Part shown: piece after piece, positions 1 to 45,907 of the stretch
Layout: each line of letters starts with the position of its first letter
How positions within the stretch are numbered: the first letter of the stretch is position 1
Assembly (NCBI GenBank): GCA_963744145.1
Contig: CAVUSO010000001.1
Location: 7,456,001-7,520,000, forward strand
Direction of reading: 5' to 3'
From: an uncultured cyanobacterium
GTDB taxonomy: Bacteria > Cyanobacteriota > Cyanobacteriia > Cyanobacteriales > CAWUOF01
Length of the DNA stretch: 64,000 nucleotides
Notes under the pieces: model-generated
What the model was told of the DNA's origin: nothing
The model's input: the letters and a program-made list of their open reading frames with translations, nothing else
Database searches by the model: none
Made by a program: the position numbers and the translations under genes

Positions 1-1098
1 TGCTGTTAAGGATCTCTCTTCTTCCCTGTTCATAATTTTTAACATGACTCGAGTAGTTTCTTGATCTGCTTTTTGCCATTTTTTGTCTGATAATAATTGC
101 TCCAGTTTTCTCAAATCAGCTCTAGATGTAACTAAATTAACTTGGGGTGCTGGAGCAAAATTAACTTGGGGTGCTGGAGCAGGTGTAGGAGAAGTAGGTT
201 TTGGAGAAGAGCTAGTAGAATGAGGTATTTTAACATCCCCAACTTGGAGTGATGGAGCAGGTGTAGGAACCGTCATAGCATTTAACACCATTGTTGCTGT
301 CCATCTTTTTTCTCGATCTTTTTCTAATGCTCCCTGGATGATCTCCCGATATCTTTGACTAATTTTTGACCATTCTATGCTCGGTTCTTCCTGAATTACT
401 TTTACCATCAATTGCTGTTCTGTCTCCCCGATAAAGGGCAACTTTCCTGTCAGCATTTCTGCCATGATTACTCCTAATGACCATATATCCCATCCTGTTG
501 CTACTACTCCCTCATAAGCTTCCGGTGGTGCGTATTCACTTGTCCCTTTTCTACTACTTGTCCTTGCTGATTTCCCAGAATTGATTGACCTCATTAACCC
601 AAAATCTGCTAACTTCCAATGCTCCCCAACTTTAATCACATTTGCTGGTTTTACATCCCGATGTACTCGACCCTCTGGTTCTTGATGTAAATAAACTAAT
701 GCAGCACCGATTTCCTTGACGATTTTCTCTACTTCCTCCTCTCCTAATGCCCCTGGCTTTTGCTCTAGAAGTTTTGCTAGTGTTTCTGCTCCTAATTCCA
801 TCACTAAGTACAACATTTCTCCGATTTTAATTTGAGTTAACCCTGGCGCATAACAACGAATTAAATGTAGATGATCTAACTTTACTGCTGCAATTAATTC
901 TTCCAGTTGTTTCTCCCGATTTTTCTGATCTCCTTCGGGTGAAATTAGCTTTACTGCTACTTGACGAATTAGCCGATCGCCTACGACTTCATCGGCACGG
1001 AAAACTGCCCCATATCCGCCCACTCCTAAGAGTTCTTTCAGGTAATATTTTCCGTCAATACATTCTGCCTCTAACAGTCGCCACAATTGTTCATTCAT
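1..1098 (-). CDS. Ser/Thr protein kinase-GUN4-like protein, paralog of 2205-5372; 3' end runs off the window
   Basis: 271-1186 is near-identical to 4545-5460 (offset 4274). The frame from ATG 1098 (MNEQLW...) matches the open paralog through the kinase and a Pro-rich linker into the GUN4 start (LVTSRADLRKLEQLLSDKKWQKADQETTRV). Absent from the ORF track because it has no stop in the window. Confidence 0.88.
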   Translation of the reverse strand, partial: MNEQLWRLLEAECIDGKYYLKELLGVGGYGAVFRADEVVGDRLIRQVAVKLISPEGDQKNREKQLEELIAAVKLDHLHLIRCYAPGLTQIKIGEMLYLVMELGAETLAKLLEQKPGALGEEEVEKIVKEIGAALVYLHQEPEGRVHRDVKPANVIKVGEHWKLADFGLMRSINSGKSARTSSRKGTSEYAPPEAYEGVVATGWDIWSLGVIMAEMLTGKLPFIGETEQQLMVKVIQEEPSIEWSKISQRYREIIQGALEKDREKRWTATMVLNAMTVPTPAPSLQVGDVKIPHSTSSSPKPTSPTPAPAPQVNFAPAPQVNLVTSRADLRKLEQLLSDKKWQKADQETTRVMLKIMNREEERSLTA

Positions 1099-1339
1099 CA
1101 CCTTCAATTCCTGCTTGAACTTGAATAGCAATCACCGTAATATTATCATTACCACCATGTTCTAAAGCTGTTTCTAGACAAGTTTGAGTCAGGTTTTCCA
1201 TTGAGTTTTCCCACTGTTGCACTAAATCTAGTAACTCATCGTCTCTGACTTCACCATGTAATCCATCGCTATATAATATTAAAACATCTCTACCAAGATA
1301 ATTCCGATAACTTTTTATGTTCATCCCATTTTGGATCAA
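1091..1339 (-). pseudogene. C-terminal fragment of a PP2C/PPM family protein phosphatase
   Basis: ILYSDGL and GGNDNITV metal-binding motifs are present; the N-terminal half is missing. Its stop overlaps the kinase ATG (ATGAATGA). Confidence 0.8.
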
Positions 1340-1983: not shown

Positions 1984-2230
1984 GCGATCGCTTGCCGATC
2001 AATCGGGTGTAGGGGCGAAGCATTCGGGCGATAATTTATCACTAAAAACCGTTAATATTATATCCGAATGCTTCGCCCTTCTTCTTCTGTGCCAGCTCCC
2101 CAAAAATATCATAGTTTAAGCAACTAATGAAATGCTGCAAACCTCATTCCTACGTCATCCAATTTTTCTGAAAAATATTCTTGATCTTTTAGAAAAGCTA
2201 TATGTTAGAGTCTAGAGAAGAGAAAAGAGA
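1984..2230. repeat. 3' flank shared by both gene-terminal GUN4 cassettes (about equal to 42938-43181), including one GTAG REP hairpin
   Basis: About 245 bp similar overall; 2100-2230 differs from 43051-43181 at only a few positions. Confidence 0.9.
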
Positions 2231-4490
2231 TTCCCCAAACACCACCCCACACCCACAGAACCCCCCCGACAGCCCGCCCCTCCCACACTGGGAGGTGTCC
2301 CATAGGAGCAGAGATATTAAAAGTGAAGTTAGAGTAGCTGCTCAACCAGTTTCCTCCTTTTCTCCAGCCGACTTCATCTCCTAATTTAACATAAGTATCG
2401 GAATCATAACTATCTAGCTTCCCACCCAATTTGAGCCAGATTTTCTTCTGGACTGAAAACCCAAATTTGTCGTTAGAATACTTTAACCACAACTGGTCAA
2501 TCATCCGCAGTTCATTTTTCGGAAAATTACGACAGTTATCTGCTGTTAACCATCCCTCTTTTTCCCTGTTCATAATTTTACACATAACTCGAACAGTTTC
2601 TTGATCTGCTTCTTGCCATTTTTTGTCTAATAATAATTGATCAAGTTTCCTCAAATCAGCTCTAGATGTAACTAAATTTTCTTGGGGTGATGGAGCAGGT
2701 GTAGGAGAAGTAGGTTTTGGAGGAGAGCTAGTAGAATGAGGTATTTTAACATCCCCAACTTGGGGTGATAGAGCAGGTGTAGGAACCATGTTAGAGTCTA
2801 GAGAAGAGAAAAGAGACAATCCAAACCCCCACCCAACCCACACCCCCAAACCAAACACACCACCAGCCGGGAGGTGTCCCGCAGGAGCAGAGATATTAAA
2901 AGTGAAGTTAGAGTAGCTGCTCAACCAGTTTCCTCCTTTTCTCCAGCCGACTTCATCTCCTATTTTAACATAAGTATCGTAATCATAATCTAGCTTCCCA
3001 CCCAATTTGAGCCAGATTTTCTTCTGGACTGAAAACCCAAATTTGTCATTAGAATACTTTAACCACAACTGGTCAATCATCCGCAGTTCATTTTTCGGAA
3101 AATTACGACAGTCATCTGGTGTTAACCATCTCTCTTTTTCCCTGTTCATAATTTTACACATAACTCGAGCAGTTTCTTGATCTGCTTCTTGCCATTTTTT
3201 GTCTGATAATAATTGATCAAGTTTCCTCAAATCAGCTCTAGATGTAACTAAATTTTCTTGGGGTGATGGAGCAAAATTAACTTGGGGTGATGGAGCAGGT
3301 GTAGGAGAAGTAGGTTTTGGAGAAGAGCTAGTAGAATGAGGTATTTTAACATCCCCAACTTGGGGTGATGGAGCAGGTGTAGGAACCATGTTAGAGTCTA
3401 GAGAAGAGAAAAGAAGACAATGACCATTCAGTTCTCCCACCAAAAATCCCCCACCCCCACCCCCAGGTAAGTGACCTAGGGGAGCATAGATATTAAAAGT
3501 GAGGTCAGAGTAGTTTAACCAGTTTCCTCCTTTTCTCCAACCGACTTCATCCCCTAATTTAACATAAGTATCGGAATCATAACTATCTAGCTTCCCACCC
3601 AATTTGAGCCAGATTTTCTTCTGGACTGAAAACCCAAATTTGTCATTAGAATACTTTAACCACAACTGGTCAATCATCCGCAGTTCATTTTTCGGAAAAT
3701 TACGACAGTTATCTGCTGTTAACCATCCCTCTTTTTCCCTGTTCATAATTTTACACATAACTCGATTAGTTTCTTGATCTGCTTCTTGCCATTTTTTGTC
3801 TGATAATAATTGATCAAGTTTCCTCAAATCAGCTCTAGATGTAACTAAATTTTCTTGGGGTGATGGAGCAAAATTAACTTGGGGTGATGGAGCAGGTGTA
3901 GGAGAAGTAGGTTTTGGAGGAGAGCTAGTAGAATGAGGTATTTTAACATCCCCAACTTGGGGTGATGGAGCAGGTGTAGGAACCATATTAGAGTCTAGAG
4001 AAGATAAAAGAGACCCATCCCCCAAACCCACCCACCAACACCCCACCACAACCCAACCAAATAACGGGAGGTGTCCCCTACGAGCAGAGATATTAAAAGT
4101 GAGGTCAGAGTAGTTCAACCAGCTTCCTCCTTTTCTCCAGCCGACTTCATCCCCTAATTTAACATAAGTATTTGAATCATAACTATCTAACTTCCCACCC
4201 AATTTGAGCCAGATTTTCTTCTGGACTGAAAACCCAAATTTGTCATTAGAATACTTTAACCACAACTGGTCAATCATCCGCAGTTCATTTTTCGGAAAAT
4301 TACGACAGTTATCTTCTGTTAAGTATCCCTCTTTTTCCCTGGTCATAACTTTCAACATGACTTGAGTAGTTTCTTGATCTGCTTCTTGCCATTTTTTGTC
4401 TGATAATAATTGATCAAGTTTCCTCAAATCAGCTCTAGATGTAACTAAATTTTCTTGGGGTGATGGAGCAAAATTAACTTGGGGTGATGG
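2202..4490. repeat. Four tandem intragenic units of about 586-600 bp (linker + GUN4 + variable segment + constant tail)
   Basis: The tail ATGTTAGAGTCTAGAGAAGAGAAAAGA recurs at 2202, 2788 and 3388, and with two substitutions at 3985. Confidence 0.95.
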
Positions 4491-5372
4491 AGGAGGTGTA
4501 AGAGAAATAGGTTTTGGATGAGAGCTAATCGGAGCAGGTGTTTTCGTCATAGCATTTAACACCATTGTTGCTGTCCATCTTTTTTCTCGATCTTTTTCTA
4601 ATGCTCCCTGGATGATCTCCCGATATCTTTGACTAATTTTTGACCATTCTATGCTCGGTTCTTCCTGAATTACTTTTACCATCAATTGCTGTTCTGTCTC
4701 CCCGATAAAGGGCAACTTTCCTGTCAGCATTTCTGCCATGATTACTCCTAATGACCATATATCCCATCCTGTTGCTACTACTCCCTCATAAGCTTCCGGT
4801 GGCGCGTATTCACTTGTCCCTTTTCTACTACTTGTCCTTGCTGATTTCCCAGAATTGATTGACCTCATTAACCCAAAATCTGCTAACTTCCAATACTCCC
4901 CAACTTTAATCACATTTGCTGGTTTTACATCCCGATGTACTTGACCCTCTGGTTCTTGATGTAAATAAACTAATGCAGCACCGATTTCCTTGACGATTTT
5001 CTCTACTTCCTCCTCTCCTAATGCCCCTGGCTTTTGCTCTAGAAGTTTTGCTAGTGTTTCTGCTCCTAATTCCATCACTAAGTACAACATTTCTCCGATT
5101 TTAATTTGAGTTAACCCTGGCGCATAACAACGAATTAAATGTGGATGATCTAACTTTACTGCTGCAATTAATTCTTCCAGTTGTTTCTCCCGATTTTTCT
5201 GATCTCCTTCGGGTGAAATTAGCTTTACTGCTACTTGACGAATTAGCCGATCGCCTACGACTTCATCGGCACGGAAAACTGCCCCATATCCGCCCACTCC
5301 TAAGAGTTCTTTCAGGTAATATTTTCCGTCAATACATTCTGCCTCTAACAGTCGCCACAATTGTTCATTCAT
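2205..5372 (-). CDS. Ser/Thr protein kinase with four tandem GUN4-like domains, each ending in a hypervariable segment
   Basis: Kinase motifs GVGGYG, VAVK, HRDVKPAN, DFG and YAPPE. Four repeats of W.EADQET...IDQLW..YS..KFGFSVQK.IW...VGWR....W...GHLP. Likely start is ATG 5372 (ORF track starts at TTG 5405). Confidence 0.95.
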   Translation of the reverse strand: MNEQLWRLLEAECIDGKYYLKELLGVGGYGAVFRADEVVGDRLIRQVAVKLISPEGDQKNREKQLEELIAAVKLDHPHLIRCYAPGLTQIKIGEMLYLVMELGAETLAKLLEQKPGALGEEEVEKIVKEIGAALVYLHQEPEGQVHRDVKPANVIKVGEYWKLADFGLMRSINSGKSARTSSRKGTSEYAPPEAYEGVVATGWDIWSLGVIMAEMLTGKLPFIGETEQQLMVKVIQEEPSIEWSKISQRYREIIQGALEKDREKRWTATMVLNAMTKTPAPISSHPKPISLTPPPSPQVNFAPSPQENLVTSRADLRKLDQLLSDKKWQEADQETTQVMLKVMTREKEGYLTEDNCRNFPKNELRMIDQLWLKYSNDKFGFSVQKKIWLKLGGKLDSYDSNTYVKLGDEVGWRKGGSWLNYSDLTFNISARRGHLPLFGWVVVGCWWVGLGDGSLLSSLDSNMVPTPAPSPQVGDVKIPHSTSSPPKPTSPTPAPSPQVNFAPSPQENLVTSRADLRKLDQLLSDKKWQEADQETNRVMCKIMNREKEGWLTADNCRNFPKNELRMIDQLWLKYSNDKFGFSVQKKIWLKLGGKLDSYDSDTYVKLGDEVGWRKGGNWLNYSDLTFNIYAPLGHLPGGGGGGFLVGELNGHCLLFSSLDSNMVPTPAPSPQVGDVKIPHSTSSSPKPTSPTPAPSPQVNFAPSPQENLVTSRADLRKLDQLLSDKKWQEADQETARVMCKIMNREKERWLTPDDCRNFPKNELRMIDQLWLKYSNDKFGFSVQKKIWLKLGGKLDYDYDTYVKIGDEVGWRKGGNWLSSYSNFTFNISAPAGHLPAGGVFGLGVWVGWGFGLSLFSSLDSNMVPTPALSPQVGDVKIPHSTSSPPKPTSPTPAPSPQENLVTSRADLRKLDQLLLDKKWQEADQETVRVMCKIMNREKEGWLTADNCRNFPKNELRMIDQLWLKYSNDKFGFSVQKKIWLKLGGKLDSYDSDTYVKLGDEVGWRKGGNWLSSYSNFTFNISAPMGHLPVWEGRAVGGVLWVWGGVWGISFLFSRL

Positions 5373-5689
5373 CACCTTCAATTCCTGCTTGAACTTGAAT
5401 AGCAATCACCGTAATATTATCATTACCACCATGTTCTAAAGCTGTTTCTAGACAAGTTTGGCTCATATTTTTTAAGCGGTTCTGAAGGTAAGAGCTGATT
5501 TAATAATTCTCGAAAAGTATTAATGGCAATTTCTGATGCTCTTTTTCTTCCCTTACGTCCCTCCATTCCATCCGCAACTACTGCTAGTAAAGCAGATTGA
5601 GCTGACCAGAATTCTAACAAATGATTGTCTTCATTGACTGGACGAACTTTACCCGTATCAGTTTTAGAATTGTAGATTAGTTGTCTCAT
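5365..5689 (-). pseudogene. PP2C/PPM phosphatase with a large internal deletion
   Basis: The N-terminus (TDTGKVRPVNEDN...AVVADGMEG) is joined out of frame at about 5460 to the last ~30 codons, which match 1091-1186. Confidence 0.8.
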
Positions 5690-5928
5690 ATTAGAATTTG
5701 CTCGATTACATATTTTCACCTATCTTCATGCGATTCTGCAAGAACATTTTTGTTCCACAACCCTGACAAAACTTAGATTGAGGGGAGTTTTCCTAGGGAC
5801 AATTAGGGTTAAGACATTTAATAAGGTTACTCATAATTTTGGAAACCTGATGTGCTAAGATCAATTAGGTAATCCGATCATATCAGAAAAATTAATGGTG
5901 TTGCTGATGATCGGCAGACACCTCGAAT

Positions 5929-6926: not shown

Positions 6927-7670
6927 ATGAAGCTAGACTATTTACCAACCGAAAAATTTTTGGCATATCCACATCAGTTTCTCGGTAAAGTTTTAGTCGT
7001 AACTTCTTGTACTGGGGAGAAACGTTACAAACCTGAAAATCAATTGACAATAGAGGATTTTAAAGAAAAAGCTCGATTCCAACAACAAGAAGCACAACTT
7101 ACTCAATTTGCTTATCCTGCAAGTCAGATGTATACAGGGACACAACACCTACGAGCAATGGAAGGAGTTAAATTACTGCGTCAGTTCCTTGGACAGGAAG
7201 TTGTAGATGTGGTGATTTTGTCTGCGGGCTATGGTTTAATTTCTGAGAACAAAACTATTGTACCATATCAAGTCACCTTCAACACAATGAAAGGTTACGA
7301 GATCGATGAGTGGGCAAAGTTTCTGGGAATACACCAAGCTTTTGAACAAGCTATTGTTGGTTATGATTTGGTGTTTATATTGCTGGGAGAAAATTATTTG
7401 CGATCGCTTTGTCTCCCTGTTGAAACTTACGATAAGCAAACTTTTATTTTTTTAGCATCGCATCGAGGTGCCAATTATATTCGAGATTTAGCTGCAAAAG
7501 CTTATGTCCTACATCTTGCCAACGCCGATGCTAAACATTACCATTATGGATTAGTAGGTTTGAAAGGATTTTTGTTCAAAAGGTTTGCTGAATGCGTTAC
7601 AAGAGAATGGACGCTACTAAAAAAGATTTATGACCAACCAGAATTATTTGTCCAGATTGTTAGATCCTGA
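6927..7670 (+). CDS. DUF6884/YaaA-like protein associated with transglycosylase loci
   Basis: VVTSCTGEK, PASQMYTG and ILSAGYGLI motifs; overlaps the downstream dpdA-like gene. Confidence 0.65.
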   Translation: MKLDYLPTEKFLAYPHQFLGKVLVVTSCTGEKRYKPENQLTIEDFKEKARFQQQEAQLTQFAYPASQMYTGTQHLRAMEGVKLLRQFLGQEVVDVVILSAGYGLISENKTIVPYQVTFNTMKGYEIDEWAKFLGIHQAFEQAIVGYDLVFILLGENYLRSLCLPVETYDKQTFIFLASHRGANYIRDLAAKAYVLHLANADAKHYHYGLVGLKGFLFKRFAECVTREWTLLKKIYDQPELFVQIVRS

Positions 7671-9045
7671 GTCTGTTCAGCTAGAGATACCATTAGAACT
7701 GCCAAAAGTCAAGCTTTCTCTTAAATCGGTTAAGAATCCAAGAATTGGTAAGTCTGAAGACAAAGAACTGATTCCTATTCCTGATGTCCCGATCGCTCCT
7801 AATTTAGATTTGGGAATGCAATATTTTATTCCTGAATGGGACGATCGCGTAGACCCTCACTATAATTTTTTGGATGATGCTCTGACACCGGGTCGAGACT
7901 CTTACAATGATGATTTATATGCTCATCAGATTTATAACAGTCCTAACTATAATGGAATTTTAGTTTCTAAGGGAATTGTCGAGCGTAGTAAAAAAAAGAA
8001 AGCACTAATTGAAAAAATAGGAATTCACAAATTTATCCGATTTTCAGGTTCAGTAATGGGAGATTGTGGAGCTTTTGGATATATCAATCAAGAGGTTCCT
8101 CCCTATAATACAGAAGAAATTCTAGAATACTATGAACGCATCGGATTTGACTATGGAGTGAGTATAGATCACCTGATTGTTGGATCATTTGCTGAATCCG
8201 GAGTGAGGGAAAAAAGATACAATTTAACCATAAAGAATGCAGAAGATTTTATCCATAAGCATCGAGCGATCGGATATAAATTCACTCCCATTGGTGCAGT
8301 TCAAGGGTGGGACCCAAAATCTTATGCTAATGCGGTCAAAGACTATATTAAAATGGGCTATAAATATATTGCATTGGGGGGACTAGCTAGGACTCCTAGC
8401 AAAGAGATTCTAAAAATATTAGAAAGTATTCACCCACATTTAACTTCCCAAACTCAGATGCACCTGTTTGGGGTAGGACGACTCAATGCTGTTCCAGCTT
8501 TCCGTCATTTAGGAGTAACCAGTTTTGATTCTGCAAGTCCATTGCGTAAAGCTTGGCTGGATTCAGCCGCAAATTACCATACTTTAGATGGTAAAACCTA
8601 TGCAGCTATTCGCATTCCTAAAGTAGATGGCTATGGGGTGCGTATTAAGCGATTGTTGGAAGCAGATGTATCAGATCGGGCAACCCTAAAAAGTCTTGAG
8701 GAAGATGCACTTACTAAACTGCGGGAGTTTAATTTAGGTCTTGTTACTTTAGAGTCAACCCTCTCATCACTACTTGCTTTAGACGAGTTACTAGAATTAC
8801 CTCGTGATGGTCAGGTAAACTCTCAAGAAAAAGCCAGACGCTTACATAGACACACGCAAATGTATCAGGAGCTTTTGGAGGAACAGCCTTGGAAGAAATG
8901 TGATTGTGTAATCTGTCAAGAAATTGGGATTGAAGTTGTAATTTTCCGAGGAAATGATCGTAACCGTAGACGTGGCTTCCATAATACCTATATTTTCCAT
9001 AAGCGCTTTAATGCCTTACTTAAAAATGAAAAATTTTTGAACTAA
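7630..9045 (+). CDS. dpdA: DpdA-like guanine transglycosylase (probable DNA 7-deazaguanine modification enzyme)
   Basis: TGT-fold motifs MGDCGAF, SIDH, GAVQG, ALGG, HLFG and SFDSAS, plus the Zn site CDCVIC...HN. It has YFIPEWDDRVDP rather than a canonical tRNA Tgt N-terminus, and sits next to DGQHR and helicase genes. Confidence 0.8.
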   Translation: MTNQNYLSRLLDPESVQLEIPLELPKVKLSLKSVKNPRIGKSEDKELIPIPDVPIAPNLDLGMQYFIPEWDDRVDPHYNFLDDALTPGRDSYNDDLYAHQIYNSPNYNGILVSKGIVERSKKKKALIEKIGIHKFIRFSGSVMGDCGAFGYINQEVPPYNTEEILEYYERIGFDYGVSIDHLIVGSFAESGVREKRYNLTIKNAEDFIHKHRAIGYKFTPIGAVQGWDPKSYANAVKDYIKMGYKYIALGGLARTPSKEILKILESIHPHLTSQTQMHLFGVGRLNAVPAFRHLGVTSFDSASPLRKAWLDSAANYHTLDGKTYAAIRIPKVDGYGVRIKRLLEADVSDRATLKSLEEDALTKLREFNLGLVTLESTLSSLLALDELLELPRDGQVNSQEKARRLHRHTQMYQELLEEQPWKKCDCVICQEIGIEVVIFRGNDRNRRRGFHNTYIFHKRFNALLKNEKFLN

Positions 9046-9055
9046 AGAGGATTCA

Positions 9056-9636
9056 GTGGAAAAGAAATTTTTGCCGCTCTTCTCTATGGACCACGCGGGT
9101 CTGTTAAGAAAGTTGAAGGATATAGAAGGAGATTACGGGATTCTAGCTCCCCTTTCCTGCCCAAAAAATCTTCTTAAAGATATTCGCAATACAGGTAAAC
9201 TTTTCTTTATTGACAGTGGTGTTTTTGAAAATCAAGCTCCTCCCTGGTACTACCAACTTCATTGTGAGTTCCTTCAGCAGCGATGGGTGCGAGAATTACG
9301 TTTGACTTCGGAACAACAATTAAGACAGAGGGTAAAAGACTATTTGAGTTTATGTGACATGATATTGGCTATCAGTGCATTGCTTTGGGAGGTTTATTAA
9401 AAGCCGACACTACTATGCCAACTGGTTTGAGGTTTGGTTTATCCGCTCAGGAACTAGATGAATTACTTACATGGGCTAGACCTGAATTGGTTTTAGGAGG
9501 TCTGGCTTTAAGCCGTATAGAAGTCCTCAAGAAACACAATGTTTGGGCTGATTCTACCAATTGGCTCTGGTGGGATGCTCGTTATGATCGGCAAAGGTTT
9601 GGACATCGGAATGTTTTTCAGGAAATTTTAGGGTGA
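9056..9636 (+). pseudogene. Split, internally deleted second TGT-fold-like gene
   Basis: Two short overlapping ORFs (9056-9400 with FFIDSGVF; 9385-9636 with VWADSTNW), together too short for a full barrel. Confidence 0.5.
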
Positions 9637-9678
9637 ATATTGTCATTACCCGTCAACAACAGTAGTATAACCATTCAA

Positions 9679-10773
9679 TTAGATAAGACCATTTACTGGG
9701 GCAACACCAACAAATTCACGCAGTGTCTTATGACACAAATCTACGGTTGTCTTTGTATTGGAAATAATCGGTTCTCCTTTAGCACCAACTTGTGTTACTC
9801 CTCTTTCTCGCCATCAAGCATTCTCGCGCTGCCACTCTATCTTTCGGAGCCGATATAACCATTGAACAATATCTTCTTCAGGAATAGCTTCTAGATAGAA
9901 TTCATGAGCCAGCATTCCTAATGCTTGGAATACAATAGCTGTTACTGCAAGTGAATTCTGTCTTTGCTTAGTGCGTTCCTCTTTACTTTTAATGCTCCAC
10001 GGGTCGTTAGGTAGAACACTCGCGGTTGCTGCCCAGAATGTGGTTGCCCAGCTAGTTAGTGGCTCCAAACCCTCTTTAGATTTTAAATAAGGGAACATAT
10101 GTCGGGTAGCTGTAACTAGGGTAGAAAATGTCAGCAATTTGGAATTATGTTTACCTAAGCCGTTTTCAACCATCTCTACATTGTTACGGAACTGAGGGAC
10201 TCGCTTAATCAAGTCTTTGGCAATTAAAACCACAGGCGATCGCTGATCGAAAGCGTGAGAGAGCGACACGCTTGGTCTTTGAACTAGAAGGTTTTGATCG
10301 CGGAAAGCTTGACGTTCCTCCTCCAATGACAGTCCAGCATATAAAAGTACCCCAATTTCAAGTTGAGAAAGGATTGGTAGATATTCCCACTGTTCAACTT
10401 GGATGTCTTTTAGTGCTTGACGGATACCAAAACATCTATGCTGACCGTCTGTCAAACCCAGAGTAACCGAGTGGTAAGGAAGAAAGATGCTGCCATTGCT
10501 ATAAGTCGGTGATAGTTGAACATTTACACAAATCGGTGGGAAAAACGTAGTACCAACTTGGTAAGTCTCCAGAATATACCGGGCGATCGCTTTAACTCTC
10601 GTAGCGTTGGGTTTGCGTTGAGCAAAATCTGGCAAATCTGACTCATTGGGAACATAAAGGCGATCGTCATTTAGCAGTCGGGCGACATCGCCAAAAAACA
10701 GAGAGCCAACATAACTTTGATGTTCACTCTGTGGTCCCCGACAAACAGGTACAGCTCGAATTACAAGTTCCAT
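9679..10773 (-). pseudogene. DGQHR-domain (DndB/DpdB-like) protein with a probable premature TGA at 9814-9816
   Basis: FAQR, FFPPI and TDGQHR motifs. After the TGA the same frame continues for 44 sense codons (WRERGVTQVGAKGEPIISNTK...) to TAA at 9679-9681. Confidence 0.7.
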
Positions 10774-43057: not shown

Positions 43058-43162
43058 TATCATAGTTTAAGCAACTAATGAAATGCTGCAAACCTCATTC
43101 CTACGTCATCCAATTTTTCTGAAAAATATTGTTGATCTTTTAAAAAAGCTATATGTTAGAGT

Positions 43163-45907
43163 CTAGAGAAGAGAAAAGAGACAACCACTAGAGTCGGCAC
43201 CACCGGCCCACCACCCATCCCACAACACCCACACACACGGGAGGTGTCCCACCGGAGCCGATATCTTAAAAGTGAGGTCAGAGTAGCTCAACCAGCTTCC
43301 TCCTTTTCTCCAACCGACTTCATTTGCTAGTTTAACATAAGTATCGGAATCATAACTACAATCTAGCTTACCACCCAATTTGAGCCAGATTTTCTTCTGG
43401 ACTGAAAACCCAAATTTGTCATTAGAATGCTTTAACCACAACTGGTCAATGATCCGCAGTTCATTTTTCGGAAAATTACGACAATTATCTTTTGTTAACC
43501 ATTCCTCTTTTTCCCTGTTCATAATTTTTAACATGACTCGACCAGTTTCTTGATCTGCTTCTTTCCATTTTTTGTCTGATAACAATTGATCCAGTTTCCT
43601 CAAATCAGCTCTAGATGTAACTAAATTAACTTGGGGTGGTGGAGAAATTGGGGTAGGGATTTGAGGAGGTTCAACAACTATTTTTGCTTGTTCTTGACGA
43701 ATCCCGTCAATTTTATCGGCAACATCATCCCGCTTTTCAATTATGCTAGTAATCCCAAGACCGATCGCTTGATTATAATCTTGGACAGCCTGTTCATATT
43801 GTGCTAAAGCAGTATTAAGATCGTTTATACTTGAAGCACGGTTACCAAGCTGATTATAAGCATCTCCTCGATACCGAAAAGCCTCGGCATAATTAGGCTG
43901 AAGTTCTAGAGTGCAAGTAAAATCAGGAATAGCTTGATCTGGTTGTTTCAACTTCAGATAGGCTAAACCGCGCTGATAGTGACCCCGAATAGATTGAGCA
44001 TCTAGTTGAATAACTTGATCAAAATCTGTAATTGCTAGATTATATTGGGATGCTTGCATTCTCCTCATCCCTCGCTCAAAACAAGCATCAACTATACTAA
44101 AATGGTCTTCTCCTAAAGCTGTCAAACATTGATTCAGTTGATCCACATACCCCAGGTCAGCAGGAATAACTACAGATGCTATTACTGTTAATAACACTTT
44201 AGTTAATTCCACCTGATTGTTTAAGTTATCTTCCTTCAGTAAAACATCTTCAGGAATCAAGCTAGCATCGCGCAATTCTAGCCAAGATATAAGGGCGTAA
44301 TTAATTTGCCCTCTTGCCCAAAATTTATCATCTAAATGCGTTAAATTTAGGGCAAAATCTAAGGCTAAATTTGGCACCCGATAGGGATTAATCAACTTGA
44401 TAGTTTGATAGATACCGCGATAGATGAAAAAAATGATATTGATGATTTCATTTTTCAAATTAGTATCATCAATTTTTGCTAATAAATCTGGTAAAAGCGT
44501 CGGCAATAGCGGCATAACATCATAATGATAAAGATGATACTGATCTGCTGCTAAACCTGCTAAAATACAATGAACATTACCCAAAAATTCTGCTAATTCT
44601 TGGATATATTCATCTTCATTAACCCGATAATCACGCCGTCTATTTCTACCTTGTTGCTGATCTCTTTTTTCCGCTTCTAAAACCTTTAAATTTTCCTCAT
44701 CATCGCCCCCTTCTTCTGCGATTTCTTTAGGGGTTTTACCTTCATCCATTAGTTGAATTCTAGTTTCTCGCCAAAGACGGGCATTTTCTCGCGCTAATGG
44801 ATAAAGCAGATCTTTCCAGGGAATAGATAGGATTCTTTTGTAGCGATAGTGAATGTCCATACTATCCCAACTGGCGATATAGATATTAATAAAATCCCCA
44901 TCAACCTTCGATTCTAAAATTAGAGTAGGGATCGATTGATGAGTATAGTACAAATTTTCCATCGCTCCTTCAGAATGCAACCTTTTACTATCCCAAACTC
45001 CCCCTAAAAATTTAGTTGGTCTGATGCTACTTTCTACAGGATAATGATGAGAATCTTGCAAAAACTCACGCAATTTATCTGTTAATGCTGTTTCAATTTT
45101 AGCAAGCCCTTGTCCAGCATGAGAAAATTTCTCAAATTCAACTGCGGGAGGTGAAATAATCACTAATAAAGGTACTGGTTTACTAGCATCAAATTTTCTG
45201 TAAATATTGAGAGTGGGAACAGAATTAGAAATCAAGGGATGATTATTGAGAATGCGTTGATATTCCGCTGACATCATCATGTTTTGTAACTGAATAGATG
45301 CCTGAATAAACATCGTTTCGCGGTCATATTTTCTTAAATTCCATTCATGTTCCTGCCGCGCTTGTATTAATTGTTGTTCAAAATCTTGCCTTTGCTGCAA
45401 CCGGATATTTTCCCATTCTTGTCGGAATCTTTCGATTTTCTGTTGATTTTCGTGGCTCAAATTAGCCAATTGAATTGCTTCATCATGCTTGCGTCTTGCT
45501 TCTTCATAAGTAAATTGTTGATTGTCTTTTTGCAAATCATATTGATTTATCCATTGCACTTGTAATTCTTCCATTCTAAATTCTTGCCGCCGAGTTTCCA
45601 TGAGGGCGCTAAATTCGTGGCGGTCTTGCTGTAAATGCCAATCTGCTACTATTCTATTGTTAGTGTTTTGTCGGTTAGATTCGATAGTATCTAAAGTGTT
45701 TTTTCTGGAAACTAATCTTCCTGCTTCCATCTGAAAATTCGCATTAATCTGTTTGTCAGTATTGATAAGGTTAGCGGTAGCTGTGGCAGTTTGGGGCATA
45801 TAAAGCATCATTCCTGTAGCTATACCATTAGCTAAATCTTTTGCTCCATTCCAAATGTTACCAGCAACAGTTGTGATGCTATTCCAACAGTATTTCAGTA
45901 TGTTCAT
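43163..45907 (-). CDS. Multidomain protein: coiled coil, unknown globular domain, TPR repeats and a C-terminal GUN4-like domain with a hypervariable end
   Basis: Q/E/R-rich heptads and TPRs (AITDFDQVIQLD, AIPDFTCTLELQPNYAEA). The GUN4 domain is nearly identical to those at 2205-4450. Confidence 0.88.
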   Translation of the reverse strand: MNILKYCWNSITTVAGNIWNGAKDLANGIATGMMLYMPQTATATANLINTDKQINANFQMEAGRLVSRKNTLDTIESNRQNTNNRIVADWHLQQDRHEFSALMETRRQEFRMEELQVQWINQYDLQKDNQQFTYEEARRKHDEAIQLANLSHENQQKIERFRQEWENIRLQQRQDFEQQLIQARQEHEWNLRKYDRETMFIQASIQLQNMMMSAEYQRILNNHPLISNSVPTLNIYRKFDASKPVPLLVIISPPAVEFEKFSHAGQGLAKIETALTDKLREFLQDSHHYPVESSIRPTKFLGGVWDSKRLHSEGAMENLYYTHQSIPTLILESKVDGDFINIYIASWDSMDIHYRYKRILSIPWKDLLYPLARENARLWRETRIQLMDEGKTPKEIAEEGGDDEENLKVLEAEKRDQQQGRNRRRDYRVNEDEYIQELAEFLGNVHCILAGLAADQYHLYHYDVMPLLPTLLPDLLAKIDDTNLKNEIINIIFFIYRGIYQTIKLINPYRVPNLALDFALNLTHLDDKFWARGQINYALISWLELRDASLIPEDVLLKEDNLNNQVELTKVLLTVIASVVIPADLGYVDQLNQCLTALGEDHFSIVDACFERGMRRMQASQYNLAITDFDQVIQLDAQSIRGHYQRGLAYLKLKQPDQAIPDFTCTLELQPNYAEAFRYRGDAYNQLGNRASSINDLNTALAQYEQAVQDYNQAIGLGITSIIEKRDDVADKIDGIRQEQAKIVVEPPQIPTPISPPPQVNLVTSRADLRKLDQLLSDKKWKEADQETGRVMLKIMNREKEEWLTKDNCRNFPKNELRIIDQLWLKHSNDKFGFSVQKKIWLKLGGKLDCSYDSDTYVKLANEVGWRKGGSWLSYSDLTFKISAPVGHLPCVWVLWDGWWAGGADSSGCLFSLL

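Follow-up and report, generated by a model that had tools for sequence, protein, structure and literature searches.

A tail with one stop codon per reading frame closes the variable 3' cassettes of many cyanobacterial GUN4-domain genes

GUN4-domain genes and cassettes in the window

The window, which is the whole 64,000-nucleotide stretch of DNA analysed here, belongs to a genome of 7.7 Mb with 39% G+C (G000, the source genome) from the order Cyanobacteriales. Two GUN4-domain genes on its minus strand carry the feature under study. The first (2205..5405) encodes, as judged from translation and profile match, a 1066-aa protein with a Ser/Thr protein kinase and four GUN4 modules; the second (43163-45907) is a TPR-GUN4 gene, with TPR repeats and one GUN4 domain, and has the same cassette at its end. 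At the curated cut-off of Pfam PF05419, GUN4 was matched in four stretches of the first gene (E of 1.1e-164) and in the second gene with an E of 6.7e-40. The whole source genome gave 54 GUN4 matches.

It was found that each module follows the same order: the codons G-H-L-P (GGACACCTCCC), a G/T-rich segment and a constant tail, TCTCTTTTCTCTTCTCTAGACTCTAAC. In the terminal module of the kinase gene, the upstream constant boundary GGACACCTCCC, whose G-H-L-P codons close the GUN4 domain, lies at 2290..2300 on the minus strand. It is followed by a variable segment of 59 nt (2231..2289, minus strand; G36 T15 A4 C4), which has no stop trinucleotide in any frame, and then by the tail (2198..2230, minus strand), consisting of the C/T-only tract TCTCTTTTCTCTTCTC and the stops TAG (2214-2212), TAA (2207-2205, the stop used) and TAG (2200-2198). 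The initial annotation had read minus strand 2230-2198 as TCTCTTTTCTCTTCTC-TAG-ACTC-TAA-CATA-TAG with one stop per frame, and the sequence agrees; every frame is reached because the stops are spaced 7 nt apart. Beyond the tail lies a conserved non-coding 3' flank (2121..2197, minus strand), in which an AT-rich palindrome, TTTTTCAGAAAAA, is followed by …GGTTTGCAGCATTTCATTA. This flank is common to other cassettes with the same class of tail (class A, see below), and in other genera its end reads TTTCATTACCTG.

Three internal cassettes were located in the kinase gene, all on the minus strand: the first at 3988..4065 (segment 4065-4014, 52 nt; tail 4013-3988, with two mismatches), the second at 3391..3465 (segment 3465-3417, 49 nt; tail 3416-3391) and the third at 2791..2868 (segment 2868-2817, 52 nt; tail 2816-2791). 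In all three, translation follows the third frame and continues into the next module (…SLFSSLDSNMVP…), and the third stop is absent from them, with CATGGTT where the terminal tail has CATATAG. The terminal cassette of the TPR-GUN4 gene (43149..43238, minus strand) has a segment of 57 nt (43238-43182), the same three stops, of which the first TAG (43165-43163) is used, and the same 3' flank downstream. The 19-mer of the tail occurs five times in the window, compared with 0.01 expected.

The segment lengths given earlier (59, 52, 49 and 52 nt in the gene at 2205-5405, and 57 nt in that at 43163) were all recovered on re-measurement. The stop of the 59-nt copy is indeed the TAA (…ISFLFSRL*), and that of the 57-nt copy is the first TAG (…CLFSLL*). 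The claim that all three frames are in use held as such, but inside the window no copy other than the internal ones uses the third frame; because these have ATGG instead, the third TAG terminates no gene in the window. It had also been proposed that A-poor segments are nearly stop-free, and the five segments of the window, with 1–7 A each, contain 0, 0, 0, 1 and 1 stop trinucleotides, counted over all frames.

Several neighbouring features were noted. The kinase gene belongs to a tandem pair of units, each with a PP2C-phosphatase fragment and a kinase-GUN4 gene (window 1-1339 and 2205-5719). The kinase N-termini of the two units are near-identical. The first gene of the pair extends beyond the window to C1:7455664, where it ends in just one cassette, richer in A and C, with TAA/TAA/TAA as its tail stops. 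Beyond the cassette flank, at about 2012-2080 on the minus strand, a long hairpin repeat, GGGCGAAGCATTCGG…CCGAATGCTTCGCCC, was found, which also lies past the cassettes at C1:2923001 and window 43155. Its summed depth in the soil run X1 was 358–558, compared with ~6–10 for its neighbours, and it is thus a multi-copy repeat family. At window 6927-10773, genes for a DUF6884 protein, a queuine tRNA-ribosyltransferase-like (TGT) protein and a DndB-like protein are clustered, which may be a DNA-modification or defence island.

Frame use and conservation of the three stops

A triple of stops at offsets 0, +7 and +14 that includes the real stop was found at 18 of the 39 Pfam-defined terminal GUN4-paralog ends of the source genome, and at 92 of 5021 (1.8%) control ORFs (at least 150 aa, same genome, the GUN4 genes themselves included). 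This corresponds to an enrichment of ~25-fold, which is not a clean probability, since the paralogs share ancestry. The stop used at the 18 triple-bearing ends was the first in eight cases, the second in seven and the third in three. Among 56 cassette rows collected from this and other genomes (a set in which a few loci are entered twice, under different names, and one row is in the wrong frame because its anchor is duplicated), the first, second and third stops were used 21, 17 and 11 times; in four of the remaining rows translation already stops within the segment, and three are internal read-through modules. The terminal cassettes are therefore not confined to a single frame.

The tail was also expected to be conserved at the nucleotide rather than the codon level. 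Over the 24 nt preceding the first stop, mismatches to the consensus at codon positions 1/2/3 of the used frame numbered 27/35/33 in class A (160 sites each) and 14/17/19 in class B (120 sites each). There was thus no excess at third positions, and no synonymous-site pattern was seen in this region in either class. The tract TCTCTTTTCTCTTCTC encodes L-F-S whichever frame is used, and when the proteins of cassettes read in different frames were aligned, 'LFS' did not vary.

Two classes of tail were distinguished. The class-A tail, that of the window, was found on about ten GUN4 paralogs of the source genome. Among 31 class-A rows, 26 had all three stops, three lacked the third and two were internal read-through modules; the search pattern for this class contained part of the tail, the first stop among it, so that conservation appears too high, but the second and third stops lay outside the pattern. 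Outside the source genome, the class-A tail was observed as TAG-ACTC-TAG-CACA-TAA in Roseofilum, TAG-ACTA-TAA-CCCA-TAA in Nostocales (Dolichospermum, Anabaena and Cuspidothrix), TAG-ACTA-TAA-ACCA-TAA in Gomphosphaeria and TAA-ACTA-TAA-CAGA-TAA in an uncultured genome. In an order-wide search with an 18-mer, matches with two mismatches were mostly noise, as control counts were similar; exact matches, those with one mismatch and a few with two were followed.

The class-B tail, TCTCTTCTCTCGCGCAAAGACTTG-TAA-CCTG-TAA-GATA-TAA, is carried by many other GUN4 paralogs of the source genome, and translation of this one DNA sequence in its three frames gives the product ends …SLLSRKDL, …LFSRAKTCNL and …SSLAQRLVTCKI. 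In 23 class-B cassettes picked without regard to stops, a stop was present at offsets 0, +7 and +14 in 21, 20 and 16 cases, respectively, and at all three in 14. All of TAA, TAG and TGA occur among them, the two spacers take 13 and 15 different tetramers, and the column entropy is minimal at the stop positions. The third stop, which is the least used, is missing from 3/31 class-A and 7/23 class-B tails. Although paralogs and related species are not independent, so that the tail counts overstate the support, the triple is retained while stop identities and spacers vary between genera and tail classes.

Two further arrangements were observed. A two-module class-B gene of the source genome (C1:330267-329775) has an internal tail with mutations in its first and third stops and a second stop that lies out of frame, and frame 3 therefore continues into the second GUN4 module; the gene mirrors the four-module class-A gene at 2205-5405. 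Locus L133 (G213:C1:2470000-2482000) has two trypsin-like protease-GUN4 genes, separated by 4.3 kb; both carry a class-A cassette, and they differ in the stop used. The RAYT-like gene (see below) between them is split into two ORFs.

Composition of the variable segment

The segments are 23–230 nt long elsewhere. The composition of 50 of them was G 43%, T 33%, A 14% and C 9%; stop avoidance does not account for the poverty in C. The base use was alike at codon positions 1/2/3 (G.48/.43/.40, T.29/.33/.37), and GGG made up 41% of the Gly codons in the segment, compared with 10% in the adjoining domain. Because the bias is equal at the codon positions and is present at synonymous sites, it points to a cause acting at the nucleotide level or on all frames, rather than to selection on the peptide of one frame alone. 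G/T-rich 45-nt windows are not exclusive to cassettes: the genome has 47 of them, of which only eight are at GUN4 ends, and among the matches listed such windows resemble periodic Gly-Val-type coding repeats.

The longest G run in the segments has 9 bases and the longest T run 7, and a (G3+N1-7)x4 G-quadruplex motif was found in 11 of the 50. Tandem duplications covered 0.252 of the segments, compared with 0.226 in dinucleotide shuffles (p<=0.05 in 2/50); individual tandem cases do occur, for example (TGGGGG)x3 at 3465-3417. A slippage or simple-sequence contingency locus was rejected on these grounds, there being no excess of tandem units over shuffles in the 50 segments. Snap-back or reverse-complement templating from the G-H-L-P anchor was rejected as well, the mean longest match in 50 cassettes being 4.40 and that in shuffles 4.37. 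A polypyrimidine mirror repeat, TCTCTTTTCTCT, was also noted.

The segment peptides are rich in Gly/Val/Trp/Leu. The initial annotation had proposed that the cassette keeps a hydrophobic C-terminal segment. This was borne out as far as an L/F/S peptide is encoded in all frames, but only 6 of 52 C-terminal peptides reached the hydropathy of a membrane helix (maximal 19-residue Kyte-Doolittle mean of at least 1.6; median 0.94), and 15.5% of the residues were charged. C-terminal sorting and tail-anchor signals have a signature motif followed by a membrane-spanning hydrophobic helix and a basic cluster; a membrane anchor or a sorting signal of the LPXTG or PEP-CTERM type was rejected from the hydropathy and charge values. 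The AlphaFold2 model of the terminal module had a mean pLDDT of 58, and values of 26–38 for segment and tail, an alignment of eight sequences being too shallow for more; as modelled, segment and tail have no confident structure.

Turnover of the variable segment

For 51 pairs of cassettes with an identity of 90% or more over the 300 nt upstream, the similarity between segments equalled that of shuffles (mean z of 0.20), with the sole exception of one ortholog pair (z = 13). Segments were unrelated in copies with 90–98% identical flanks, and no donor or template-like second copy of any segment was found among the 56 collected cassettes.

Orthologous loci behaved likewise. In two Nostocales species, the DNA downstream is 98.2% identical over 563–571 nt, and the segments, of 86 and 46 nt, are unrelated; the homology stops exactly at …CACCTGCC and restarts at …TACTC|TTTTCTC. 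A metagenome contig and one Nostocales locus share a downstream flank of 99.5% identity, and their segments differ at ~40% of the aligned positions, by manual count on the alignment, and by a 3-nt indel. Because orthologous loci also carry unrelated or diverged segments, the turnover is not merely an effect of comparing paralogs. Two counter-cases were observed: a pair with 99.6% identical flanks and a one-base difference in the segment, and one ortholog pair whose segment is 92% identical, compared with 96% for the flanking DNA.

A pair of orthologs with a 230-nt segment was informative about the place of change. The first (5') 150 nt are identical, and indels of 3, 9, 7, 2 and 1 nt and several substitutions all lie in the 90 nt adjoining the tail. 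This suggests that change starts from the tail side. The turnover is thus fast and partly tail-proximal, and includes indels, dense substitution and outright replacement. It had been proposed that indels are produced routinely; the part of this that could be recovered is their presence between orthologs (1–9 nt), on an evolutionary time scale. In the public run X1 (Logan contigs), 46% of the sampled words were present, in short pieces that break at repeats and tell nothing about the segments. A metagenome scan with the tail of the source genome gave no match, and one with the Nostocales tail gave 11 loci.

The 3' flank and the facing transposase gene

About 100 nt beyond the stops are conserved, ending in …GGATTTCATTACCTG in class A and …TTCGATACCTGGCAC in class B. 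An Rfam search of ten tail/flank loci (E<=1) yielded no credible family and only chance miRNA-like hairpins. Beyond the flank, several genomes have a gene for an IS200-like Y1 transposase of 268–295 aa, convergent with the GUN4 gene. The protein matched Pfam Y1_Tnp with an E of 2.7e-19, and its best NCBIfam match was the REP-associated tyrosine transposase (REP_Tyr_transpos) with 63 bits, below the cut-off of 80; it is called RAYT-like here. A PDB sequence search with it gave no match.

The RAYT-like gene was present in 23 of 121 genomes of the order. At 16 of 27 RAYT-like loci in these genomes, a convergent class-A or class-B tail lies 100–420 nt past the 3' end of the gene, and GUN4 coding sequence precedes the tail in 10 of the 11 loci listed, the exception being the source genome's own copy. 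As there are at most 30 cassettes in about 6 Mb, this adjacency is far above chance. Genomes with a RAYT-like gene had a mean of 10.0 GUN4 matches and those without it 5.8 (Mann-Whitney p = 3e-4, uncorrected for phylogeny), which weakly indicates that the gene co-occurs with GUN4 expansion, but 31 RAYT-negative genomes had at least eight GUN4 matches.

There is no RAYT-like gene within the window. The source genome has matches only at C1:6188628-6189434, 4710627-4710968 and 6349170-6349484. The first is the sole full-length copy; it has an internal TAA, lies 1.27 Mb from the window and is followed by the flank-end motif GGATTTCATTACCTGCCA and by no GUN4 gene. A degenerate CTTCT-TAA-AATCC-TAA-CCCAT-TAG at this locus covers three frames with 8-nt spacing. 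The fragment at 4710627-4710968 faces the class-B cassette C1:4709945-4710440.

At six RAYT-facing loci of other genomes (L143, L147, L148, L152, L154 and L160), tandem duplications were seen in or beside the variable segment. The duplicated parts are the G-H-L-P anchor or pieces of tail and flank, with sizes of 31 nt (twice), about 60 nt (twice) and 22–26 nt (four times); one example is GGGGGCACCTCCCGACTTTCT x4. Such duplications could be traces of template switching or re-copying that recurred at the edges of the segment.

Since tails and flanks exist without GUN4, the three stops may belong to a repeat element and not to the gene family. Tail and flank would then be the end of a small REP/RAYT-associated repeat that spreads to gene 3' ends, the three stops a generic read-through terminator and the G/T segment junction or filler DNA from the insertion, with no adaptation of the gene family. 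Tail and flank were indeed found beside a RAYT-like gene without any GUN4 gene in one genome (G092) and after unrelated repeats in another (G026), and the homology of such tail-only copies begins exactly at (T)ACTC|TTTTCTC. The full-length RAYT-like locus of the source genome, with its flank-end motif and degenerate stops, and the facing arrangement at 16 of the 27 loci fit the same explanation. So does a kinase fragment directly fused to a tail: at C1:2896307-2896325 of the source genome, a truncated kinase (…VHRDVKP) is joined to a slightly diverged tail, CTCTTCTATAGAATCTAAC, a deletion or rearrangement having joined the cassette end to a different point of a gene. Yet nearly all collected tails stand after a GUN4 domain and always after the same G-H-L-P codons, which random insertion would not produce. 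Classes A and B resemble diverged homologues over tail and flank, which argues for their descent together with the gene, and the segments differ between orthologous loci while tail and flank stay in place, so that the variation is not limited to insertion events. We therefore regard a spreading repeat element as an unlikely source of the tail.

Interpretation

The cassette has a constant anatomy: …G-H-L-P, a G/T-rich and A-poor segment, a C/T-only tract, three stops and ~100 nt of conserved flank. The explanation that we favour, to which we give a probability of roughly 70%, is that the cassette closes the 3' end of many GUN4-domain paralogs in cyanobacteria and that the tail is its constant terminator, which works in whichever frame is read. 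DNA made of G and T only, or of C and T only, has no stop codons, and such two-letter coding specifies only Gly/Val/Trp/Cys/Leu/Phe (G/T) or Ser/Leu/Phe/Pro (C/T). As two-letter DNA is stop-free, a segment of any length still leads into an open frame that ends 2 to 9 codons past the C/T tract. The initial annotation had interpreted the cassette as tolerating any length change, and this is supported here. Because the frame that enters the tail keeps changing among copies, the three stops are probably held by selection, and the design would be an adaptation to locally raised indel and mutation rates.

An explanation by ordinary fast evolution was also weighed. The C-terminus would be disordered and unconstrained, gene conversion would homogenise the GUN4 domain and the flank, old non-homologous tails would persist, and the extra stops would be chance in an AT-rich 3' region. 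The ortholog pair with 92% segment identity, the pLDDT of 26–38 for segment and tail (from the shallow eight-sequence alignment) and the occurrence of the triple by chance at 1.8% of control ORF ends would be expected if this were so. However, syntenic orthologous loci with 98–99.5% identical flanks have segments that are unrelated or about 40% diverged, and conversion needs a donor, none of the 56 collected cassettes having a similar segment. Moreover, the triple is ~25-fold enriched with changed stop identities in two tail classes, and the G/T bias reaches synonymous positions. Ordinary evolution of a free C-terminus is thus distinctly improbable.

That the frames serve expression, with several C-termini arising per gene through ribosomal frameshifting or transcriptional slippage at runs of G or T and each stop ending one product, agrees with the long runs and with segments and C/T tracts open in all frames, but is highly improbable, as the segments share no sequence and hence no conserved slippery site, and the copies differ in frame at the DNA level, which alone suffices for the use of all frames.

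For the frame-independent terminator, the cause of the turnover is a separate matter. The leading candidate, which we put forward tentatively, is the facing RAYT-like transposase acting on the conserved flank. In this scheme, the transposase would recognise the hairpin-bearing flank just past the gene and open the DNA at the tail, and repair, proceeding inwards from the tail, would replace the neighbouring coding DNA with near-random, G/T-rich sequence whose length is not fixed. Whatever sequence resulted could still be translated, the C/T tract and the tail with its stops in three frames being the built-in means to that end. A general cyanobacterial system of 3'-end diversification, linked to REP-type (RAYT/TnpA_REP) single-strand DNA transposases, might then exist, of which GUN4-domain sensor proteins and prochlorosin precursors would be two clients; we consider this a speculative extension.

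Few bacterial mechanisms are known that concentrate variation in a single part of a gene. In the present case a large signalling family, with kinase-, protease- and TPR-GUN4 fusions, bears a freely rebuilt C-terminal stretch, and its coding design tolerates frameshifts rather than being switched off by them. The signature of stop-free two-letter composition, an all-frame tract and one stop per frame could be searched for in other gene families.

Comparison with known systems

Indel-prone coding repeats that shift the frame are known from contingency loci, and off-frame 'hidden' stops are known to end shifted translation early. A shift switches the gene off in contingency loci, whereas in the GUN4 cassettes every frame gives a complete protein and only the last residues differ. 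Cyanobacteria also have heptamer tandem repeats (STRR, of the TAACTGA type). The tail resembles these in its 7-nt period, which visits all three frames by arithmetic, but it has three units, of which only the TAR triplet is conserved, and a fixed position at the gene end, unlike an intergenic array.

Diversity-generating retroelements (DGRs), among whose targets are cyanobacterial kinases (PMC7517822), share with the GUN4 cassettes C-terminal hypervariation in signalling proteins, constant borders and a conserved element immediately downstream of the variable part. DGRs change adenine positions only, keep the length, and depend on a template repeat and on a reverse transcriptase close by. The GUN4 segments, in contrast, vary from 23 to 230 nt, are depleted of A and have no template-like copy among those seen. 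A DGR target was rejected, as the three RVT_1 matches of the genome (C1:5.09, 3.19 and 5.01 Mb) all lie away from the window.

In the full texts searched, which cover a minority of the subscription journals, no description of the tail, of its association with GUN4 or of a GUN4-RAYT link was found. The closest parallel is provided by the prochlorosin precursors of marine picocyanobacteria (Laurenceau et al., bioRxiv 10.1101/2020.03.09.984088). In their procA genes a conserved leader precedes a hypervariable core rich in indels; without exception these genes point towards a tnpA_REP gene, from which a conserved intergenic region separates them, and G-rich DNA marks the boundary between the constant and the variable part (10.1101/2020.03.09.984088). 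The authors proposed a transposase-linked diversification and later added a note that the causal link is unproven; they also reported that the closest cyanobacterial relatives of TnpA_REP are not beside lanthipeptide genes (10.1101/2020.03.09.984088).

Like procA-tnpA_REP, the GUN4 cassettes belong to an expanded family with a conserved 5' part and a hypervariable, indel-rich 3' part and appear to have a G-rich border. A Y1 transposase of putative REP type, with a C-terminal extension, faces the tail across a conserved intergenic stretch at 16 of the 27 RAYT-like loci of the order, and this arrangement is absent at the locus of the window. Unlike procA, the hypervariable genes here code for signalling proteins with a GUN4 domain and occur in other cyanobacteria, and no stop tail covering three frames is reported in the procA text (10.1101/2020.03.09.984088). 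The facing arrangement is an independent second case beside the prochlorosin genes, by which a transposase-linked diversification, as yet unproven, becomes testable by biochemistry and genetics. New with respect to the procA work are putative transposase relatives that face another hypervariable gene family, and a frame-proof tail at the end of its genes.
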